64,000 nucleotides of DNA. Origin: Clostridia bacterium (GTDB lineage Bacteria > Bacillota > Clostridia > TANB77 > CAG-508). Shown in pieces: positions 11,820-12,004 of this stretch; positions within the stretch are counted from its first letter, which is position 1; the number at the start of each line of letters is the position of its first letter. Location of the stretch: positions 3,108 through 67,107 of the forward strand of contig JAFVBS010000003.1 of the NCBI GenBank assembly GCA_017479865.1, given 5' to 3'. Made by a program: the position numbers and the translations under genes. The notes beneath the pieces are model-generated. The model worked only from the letters and a program-made list of their open reading frames with translations, was not told the DNA's origin and searched no databases.

Positions 11820-12004
11820 TTGTCAAAAGTATTTATGATTTATTACATTCCTCGGCTCATGAAACGTTCATTGGTCTTCTAAGCTAAAACGTGCATGAGC
11901 CTCTCCAAGAAACTTGCACCCTCATGCTACGTTTTAGCCAAGAATACCAATTCTCATTTGTTTCAATCGCATTCGTCATTGCATAAATCATGAATACTTT
12001 TGAC
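11820..12004. repeat. MITE-like intergenic repeat, copy A (~185 bp, ~22 bp terminal inverted repeats, internal stem-loop)
   Basis: near-identical copies at 53270-53454 and, internally deleted, at 51035-51130; TIR gtcaaaagtattYatgatttat at both ends. Confidence 0.6.

Follow-up and report, generated by a model that had tools for sequence, protein, structure and literature searches.

Bacterial MITEs are usually shorter than 200 bp, with lengths of up to ~400 bp, do not contain a transposase gene and are characterized by terminal inverted repeats (TIRs), flanking direct repeats and a long stable stem-loop (PMC3184786). They are often located at the 3' ends of genes and co-transcribed, with some of them affecting mRNA stability or providing promoters (PMC3184786; PMC2649163). 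The Correia elements of Neisseria, also known as CREE or NEMIS, are described as intergenic repeats of 100-160 bp with TIRs and a long hairpin that are co-transcribed with their neighbors, whose ends can create promoters on either side and whose hairpin is an RNase III substrate (PMC2649163; PMC3184786). The ERIC or IRU repeat of enterobacteria is a transcribed intergenic imperfect palindrome of ~127 bp which is often found downstream of genes and affects the stability of the upstream mRNA (PMC3184786, citing De Gregorio 2005). ERIC-type copies carry TIRs, target duplications and a flanking TA (PMC3184786). In the Bacillus cereus group, bcr1 repeats of ~155 bp are intergenic and transcribed, show a non-conserved distribution between related strains and keep their RNA structure through compensatory base changes (PMC3184786). 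The RUP, BOX and SPRITE repeats of Streptococcus pneumoniae are likewise small and non-autonomous with predicted RNA structures; RUP is a classic MITE with TIRs while SPRITE is terminator-like and biased to gene 3' ends (PMC3184786; PMC3049150). REP sequences are G+C-rich, 20-40 bp long and carry a GTAG or CGTC tag at one end (PMC3733652).

The DNA analyzed here (the window) is a stretch of 64,000 nt from a Clostridia genome and is part of the 71.5-kb ENA contig ERZ27256838:k141_994390. Window genes are almost all encoded on the + strand and the G+C content is 32%. Three dispersed copies of a repeat, with an element G+C content of 37%, were identified at unrelated loci of the 71.5 kb. Their main features are:

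11822..12005, + strand, copy 1, full length, 184 nt (repeat finder, blastn, fold)
11822..11843, + strand, left terminal inverted repeat of copy 1
11883..11938, + strand, inner 17-bp stem of copy 1 with apical loop (11883-11899 / 11921-11938)
11983..12004, + strand, right terminal inverted repeat of copy 1
51032..51130, + strand, copy 3, internally deleted (repeat finder, blastn)
53272..53455, + strand, copy 2, full length, 184 nt (repeat finder)
53272..53293, + strand, left terminal inverted repeat of copy 2
53433..53454, + strand, right terminal inverted repeat of copy 2

An earlier sequence-only reading of the window had reported three copies, all of them intergenic. The repeat is real and the intergenic location holds for every copy (rimO|fba, glyQS|cmk and murD|218-aa gene), but the boundaries given for the two long copies were 2 nt off and the third copy is not full length. 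Each copy follows closely upon a stop codon. Copy 1 starts after a gap of 2 nt behind the rimO stop (11817-11819) and ends 92 nt ahead of fba (ATG 12098), copy 2 starts 7 nt behind the murD stop (53262-53264) with 75 nt remaining to the ATG (53531) of a 218-aa gene of unknown function, and copy 3 starts 5 nt behind the glyQS stop (51024-51026) with 38 nt remaining to the cmk ATG (51169). All three copies share one orientation, co-directional with the flanking genes, which is not significant when taken alone (p=0.25), while their extreme upstream position within the spacers is mildly unexpected (~0.01-0.03 by our own estimate, allowing for sparing of the downstream promoter).

Copies 1 and 2 are 92% identical in an ungapped alignment (repeat finder) with a blastn E-value of 6e-75, in good agreement with the ~90% noted before. 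Copy 3 consists of 13 nt of the left TIR (CAAGAGTATTCAT) fused straight onto the right ~85 nt of the element, which are 89% identical to copy 1 (blastn, E=5e-25), and has lost about 85 nt internally relative to the full copies. Similarity breaks off sharply at the TIRs and the flanks are unrelated among copies. No more than three copies are known, and they all lie on the same contig, as would also be expected if the similarity were due to chance, to a chimeric assembly or to local duplication and the element were not dispersed at all; given the two E-values, the sharp ends within unrelated flanks and the independent assembly of the same sequences from three other samples, we consider such an explanation extremely unlikely.

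These identical copies are found on contigs of ERZ28655174, ERZ28655154 and Logan SRR12529321, making four independent metagenome samples together with that of the window. All four samples represent one species, and no presence/absence polymorphism or empty site was detected among them. The elements are accordingly real and have become fixed in the species. In two of the other assemblies, a contig breaks off within the element, at position 34 or 37 (L013 1-151; L016 2403-2439), which could reflect the typical behavior of assemblers at repeats or low coverage. Copy 1 does not contain the final 30-mer of the Logan contig, which hints at more genomic copies or, again, low coverage.

Both full copies open with GTCAAA(A/T)GTATT(T/C)ATGATTTAT and end with the inverted complement. 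In copy 1, GTCAAAAGTATTTATGATTTAT pairs with ATAAATCATGAATACTTTTGAC through 21 Watson-Crick pairs and one T.G pair over 22 positions, and the 22-bp TIR of copy 2 is complementary at 21 of 22 positions, so that the proposed terminal inverted repeats of ~22 bp are found in both full copies. Searching the window for a 15-mer TIR core with at most 2 mismatches returned five matches where 0.6 are expected, all five being element ends. The inner stem of the sequence-only reading is present as well, with a 1-nt bulge in copy 1 and an additional mismatch in copy 2; what that reading did not see is that complementarity extends along the whole element, with 65 of 87 opposed positions being Watson-Crick when each full copy is compared with its own reverse complement.

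RNA folding, named as a check in the sequence-only reading, gave a minimum free energy of -67.4 kcal/mol for the + strand of copy 1, compared with -26.9 +/- 3.8 kcal/mol for shuffled sequences (z -10.8), and -62.1 kcal/mol (z -9.1) for copy 2 with a few flanking bases. The - strand of copy 1 reaches -71.4 kcal/mol (z -9.0), and the two strands fold about equally well as RNA. Folded as single-stranded DNA, copy 1 yields -39.8 kcal/mol (z -8.4). Copy 3, which retains only the 13-bp terminal stem, one entire arm of the inner stems being gone, reaches -22 kcal/mol on the + strand (z -3.0). No excess of G.U wobbles was found on one strand, the counts of 1 vs 1 and 0 vs 2 being uninformative, and thus nothing marks the strand that would matter as RNA.

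As noted in the sequence-only reading, no transposase ORF lies inside any copy. Stops interrupt all six frames of copy 1, and the sole open frame, encoding 57 aa in copy 2, is interrupted in copy 1. A toxin or small-protein function was rejected because the frame is not conserved between copies. A word-indexed peptide search with the 57-aa frame returned no candidate, and the phmmer matches were two tandem-repeat pseudo-proteins with a weak match summed over 8 repeats and were dismissed as spurious.

The element resembles bacterial MITEs in its size and lack of a transposase gene, its TIRs and its stem-loop, but differs from them in that flanking direct repeats were not found. When offsets of 0-11 nt per side and lengths of 2-9 nt were scanned for target-site duplications, no direct repeat was present in all three copies, and matches in two of the three were merely 2-3 nt of A/T. 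Old target duplications may have decayed beyond recognition. In copies 2 and 3, the inverted repeat continues into the flanks for a few A/T-rich bases that are specific to each copy, which may be due to chance given the base composition. As the anatomy is that of a MITE but direct repeats are missing, we refer to the element as MITE-like and not as a proven MITE.

We hypothesize that the three copies represent a small lineage-specific family of non-autonomous fold-back (MITE-like) transposable elements which are now relics, a reading we hold with slightly more confidence than doubt. An ancestral element of ~184 bp with ~22-bp TIRs would have been mobilized in trans by a transposase whose gene lies elsewhere or has been lost since, and would have landed in AT-rich spacers right behind stop codons. 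Divergence between the full copies is 8%, and one copy is internally deleted; such derivatives are usual in transposon families and copy 3 fits this pattern. The copies are fixed and identical in four samples and are therefore probably relics that are no longer active. Several observations count against a MITE origin, among them the following two. The adjacency to stop codons (2-7 nt) together with the shared orientation is not readily given by random insertion, and co-varying TIR arms, discussed below, are not predicted by a simple decay of transposase-binding sites.

Further copies and a partner element were sought in several collections. Queries with the full element and with each of its 46-nt ends against PLSDB and INPHARED returned nothing or chance matches (E>=0.2), none of them adjoining a transposase. 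A 22-nt TIR pattern run against GTDB, in which each of 185,579 species is represented by one genome, recovered neither a copy nor a longer element with the same ends; its two matches, in an Oscillospiraceae MAG and a Methanobacterium MAG, show no similarity past the pattern and were discarded as chance. Two independent patterns, one taken from the right end and one from the inner arm, had zero matches in JGI metagenomes, as did two patterns in IMG/VR. It should be noted that exact-pattern searches of this kind miss diverged ends. An nhmmer profile built from the three copies detected no diverged copy in 450 kb of DNA, the only extra match (14 bits, antisense within a coding gene) being treated as chance. 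This match corresponds to the central 68 nt of the element and lies antisense to the gene at 8035-9111, which has a faint DAP_DH_C Pfam match. It scores 14 bits with E=0.0035 in the nearest relative (L008 2461-2531, - strand) and 7 bits in the window (8524-8594, - strand), and is probably fortuitous.

The rest of the contig, 7.5 kb in total (3.8 kb to the left and 3.7 kb to the right of the window), contains no further copy and no DDE transposase. No transposase for the element was found in the 71.5-kb contig, ten further window ORFs being housekeeping genes or unknown. Mobility genes are present only at the far right end of the contig in the form of tyrosine recombinases and TnpV. Specifically, the region 61667-64000 downstream of secA encodes a tyrosine integrase (Arm-DNA-bind_4, Phage_int_SAM_3, Phage_integrase), TnpV, a small ORF and a second Phage_integrase protein. 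This cluster resembles an integrative element, runs past the window edge (L011 10001-13002) and shows no link to the repeat.

The nearest relatives available share 80% identity in both RimO and MurD and have kept the rimO-fba and glyQS-cmk-murD-next-CBS gene orders. None of the three orthologous spacers in the nearest relative (~80% protein identity) carries the element, and their divergence is too high for an exact empty site to be defined. The rimO|fba spacer is 195 nt long in the relative and 278 nt in the window, the glyQS|cmk spacer 143 and 142 nt, and the murD|next spacer 147 and 266 nt, respectively. All three spacers of the relative contain unrelated sequence, yet their promoter and RBS parts are still recognizably homologous. 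Behind glyQS, where copy 3 is located in the window, the relative carries a canonical terminator. No similar sequence was detected by blastn or nhmmer in ~70 kb from the nearest and more distant relatives. Judged from these sequence comparisons, absence in the relative fits a gain in the lineage of the window. The rimO|fba spacer of the relative contains an unrelated 92-nt hairpin with perfect 12-bp inverted repeats AATTGTGTTACT / AGTAACACAATT (L008 5798-5889), and no second copy of it was found in the relatives' and window DNA examined. More distant relatives (77-79% RimO identity) encode recG and not fba behind rimO (L004 11401-13464; L006 11385-13451, 15353-16512), and one of them has an IS110-family transposase nearby that shows no similarity to the repeat.

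Taken together, the non-autonomous mobile element put forward in the sequence-only reading gains from size, TIRs, the lack of an ORF, dispersal, the fold-back structure, the deletion derivative and absence in the relative, while the mobility part of that claim is weakened by the lack of direct repeats, of a transposase on the contig and of any further copy or TIR-matching element in the collections searched.

The distribution of substitutions brings a second explanation into play, namely that the repeat is a structured cis-acting RNA. The rod-like hairpin would in this case stabilize or terminate the upstream mRNA or mark it for processing as part of the 3' UTR, or the copies would form a small-RNA gene family, with the structure under selection and spread being secondary. 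Copies 1 and 2 differ by 14 substitutions, 9 of which fall in the 60 positions that are unpaired in the copy 1 fold, as would be expected for a selected structure. Of the remaining 5, two form a compensatory pair (A7:T177 to T:A in copy 2), one changes T.G to C:G and two disrupt pairing. Copy 3 has retained every one of the 13 pairs in its 13-bp terminal stem, including a compensatory change from A6:T178 to G:C and one wobble. Across the three copies, the terminal stem of 13-22 bp has thus undergone two compensatory double changes and two wobble-compatible ones. The simulated chance of such a double change is about 0.14 and 0.05 per comparison, or ~0.01 jointly. Under a symmetric classing of positions, however, the contrast is only marginal by our count (7 substitutions in 134 paired vs 7 in 50 unpaired positions). 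These alignments lend modest support to the terminal stem itself, beyond its sequence, being maintained, which could be due to selection on an RNA or DNA hairpin or to hairpin-templated correction.

A function as RNA would also suit the gene-oriented placement of all three copies a few nucleotides past a stop codon as well as the canonical terminator that takes the place of copy 3 in the relative. However, Rfam 15 yielded a sole match in the window at gathering level, a tRNA-Thr, and none on the elements, while lowering the threshold to E<=10 for two copies produced nothing beyond miRNA-like hairpin noise (16-23 bits vs thresholds of 40-100). Both strands fold alike with no one-strand G.U excess, copy 3 has been retained despite having lost one whole inner-stem arm, and the element is absent at the same genes in relatives. 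Further, no conserved promoter was found in or ahead of the element, and a terminator scan revealed no canonical terminator at or before any copy. A U-tract is absent after copies 1 and 2, and only copy 3 is directly followed by GTTTTAATT, whereas hairpin plus T-run terminators do occur elsewhere in the window, for example at 13040-13075 and 22273-22317. We regard a structured RNA as unlikely overall; the small-RNA alternative of the sequence-only reading is helped by the compensatory stem changes but not by Rfam, strand-specific wobbles or a conserved promoter or terminator.

With co-directional genes and no canonical terminator ahead, the element is probably transcribed together with the upstream gene, each copy most likely forming part of the 3' UTR of rimO, murD or glyQS. 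Under the fold-back transposon explanation, the rod-like hairpin could then influence read-through or the decay of the mRNA. At the ends of the element, TTGAC faces outward and combines with flanking TATAAT into promoter-like sites in two copies:

12000..12027, + strand, putative promoter TTGACT-16-TATAAT, 11/12 consensus, -35 formed by the last 6 nt of copy 1 and -10 (12022-12027) located in the flank
51117..51145, + strand, putative promoter TGGATA-17-TATAAT, 10/12 consensus, upstream of cmk, -35 inside the right TIR of copy 3 and -10 (51140-51145) located in the flank

The right end of the element would in this way give a -35-like hexamer to fba and cmk. Promoter-like matches are common in AT-rich DNA (7 vs 3.2 expected in the first region scanned), and we therefore only infer such a donation. 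The corresponding position ahead of cmk in the nearest relative holds an ordinary TTGAAA-17-TATAAT.

Two features of the neighboring genes should also be mentioned. An apparent 1-nt insertion is found in fba (12098-12170), where the ATG at 12098, preceded by the RBS GGAGGAGG, encodes MPLVTTKEMFEKSMKEHFAIRSI followed by a stop, with the typical aldolase continuation ...GAFNVNNMEIIQ being in the next frame from 12150. The insertion is also present in an independent assembly (L013) and is thus probably not an assembly error. Gene callers begin fba at the ATG at 12180, dropping about 27 N-terminal residues. Upstream of glyQS, 851 nt without a convincing ORF (48787-49637) contain a 33-nt hairpin at 49116-49182, and no T-box or other Rfam match was found in this region even at E<=1.

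As a third explanation, the repeat may be a DNA element whose movement depends on its hairpin and leaves no target duplication, either a REPIN-like doublet (RAYT/HUH) or an attC-like site of a tyrosine recombinase. Integron attC sites are imperfect palindromes of 57-141 bp which end in GTTRRRY and are located behind cassette ORFs, with IntI encoded nearby. The missing target-site duplications, arms that co-vary such that the stem is kept rather than the sequence, and the stable fold of the single-stranded DNA would all be accounted for. The position right behind stop codons recalls attC sites after cassette stop codons, the lower strand of the copy 2 right end (GTTAAAT) fits the attC core GTTRRRY, and tyrosine recombinases are encoded on the same contig. 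This is, however, the only one of six ends to fit, the others being GTCAAA or CAAGAG; at 184 nt the element exceeds attC and REP sites; its neighbors rimO, murD and glyQS are core housekeeping genes and not cassettes; and the recombinases at 61667-64000 sit in a separate island with TnpV. Compared with REP and REPIN sequences, the element is similarly an extragenic palindrome without target duplication that is possibly dependent on a single-stranded hairpin, but is AT-rich, reads GTCAAA at its ends and has no GTAG or CGTC tag. No IntI-type or RAYT gene was seen in the window or contig. PATEs derived from IS200/IS605 carry subterminal hairpins at each end in direct orientation and have neither TIRs nor duplications. 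The element ends are instead inverted complements that pair with each other and not within themselves. Based on these comparisons, a hairpin-dependent DNA element of REPIN or attC type appears improbable.

The same holds for a broader proposal, in which a structure-defined hairpin element, as opposed to a DDE-type MITE, would spread without duplication to the first nucleotides past stop codons. An HUH or tyrosine recombinase would move it, making it the Clostridia equivalent of REPINs or attC-like sites, and its stem would be kept by selection or hairpin-templated correction. If this were true, the lack of duplications, the co-variation of the arms and the closeness to stop codons would share one explanation; we nevertheless consider it a doubtful proposition.

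Among the described MITE-like families, Correia elements are similar to the element in being intergenic with TIRs and a long hairpin and in having ends that may contribute to promoters, here through outward TTGAC that forms promoter-like sites with the flanks. They differ by TA target duplications, hundreds of copies and an IHF site, whereas the element has no duplication, three known copies and no sequence similarity to Correia. ERIC belongs to another phylum and differs in sequence, and neither a target duplication nor a flanking TA is detectable at the element. Like bcr1, the element has a Firmicutes host and shows compensatory changes, but bcr1 forms a cruciform of two independent stem-loops with 5-bp direct repeats while the element folds back into one rod and shows no direct repeats. 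For RUP, target duplications and a partner IS family are known, neither of which was found for the element in the searches made. SPRITE combines a hairpin with a U-tract, which copies 1 and 2 lack, and the combination of a G+C-rich stem and U-tract typical of intrinsic or SPRITE-like terminators was not found for any copy in the terminator scan. Judged by the absence of a sequence relative in the collections searched, the family appears to be new, while its kind is well known; by analogy, all of its unusual traits have precedents in Correia, ERIC, bcr1 or SPRITE.

If the fold-back transposon reading is correct, the repeat would be one more lineage-specific fold-back family, here in a poorly known ruminant-gut Clostridia lineage, and a new question would open only if stop-codon targeting and missing duplications hold in many more copies. 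It would also be a tidy case of a repeat that takes up the place of the terminator and the -35 box between housekeeping genes. The family would explain assembly breaks at these spots in this organism and would be useful for annotation and as a strain marker.
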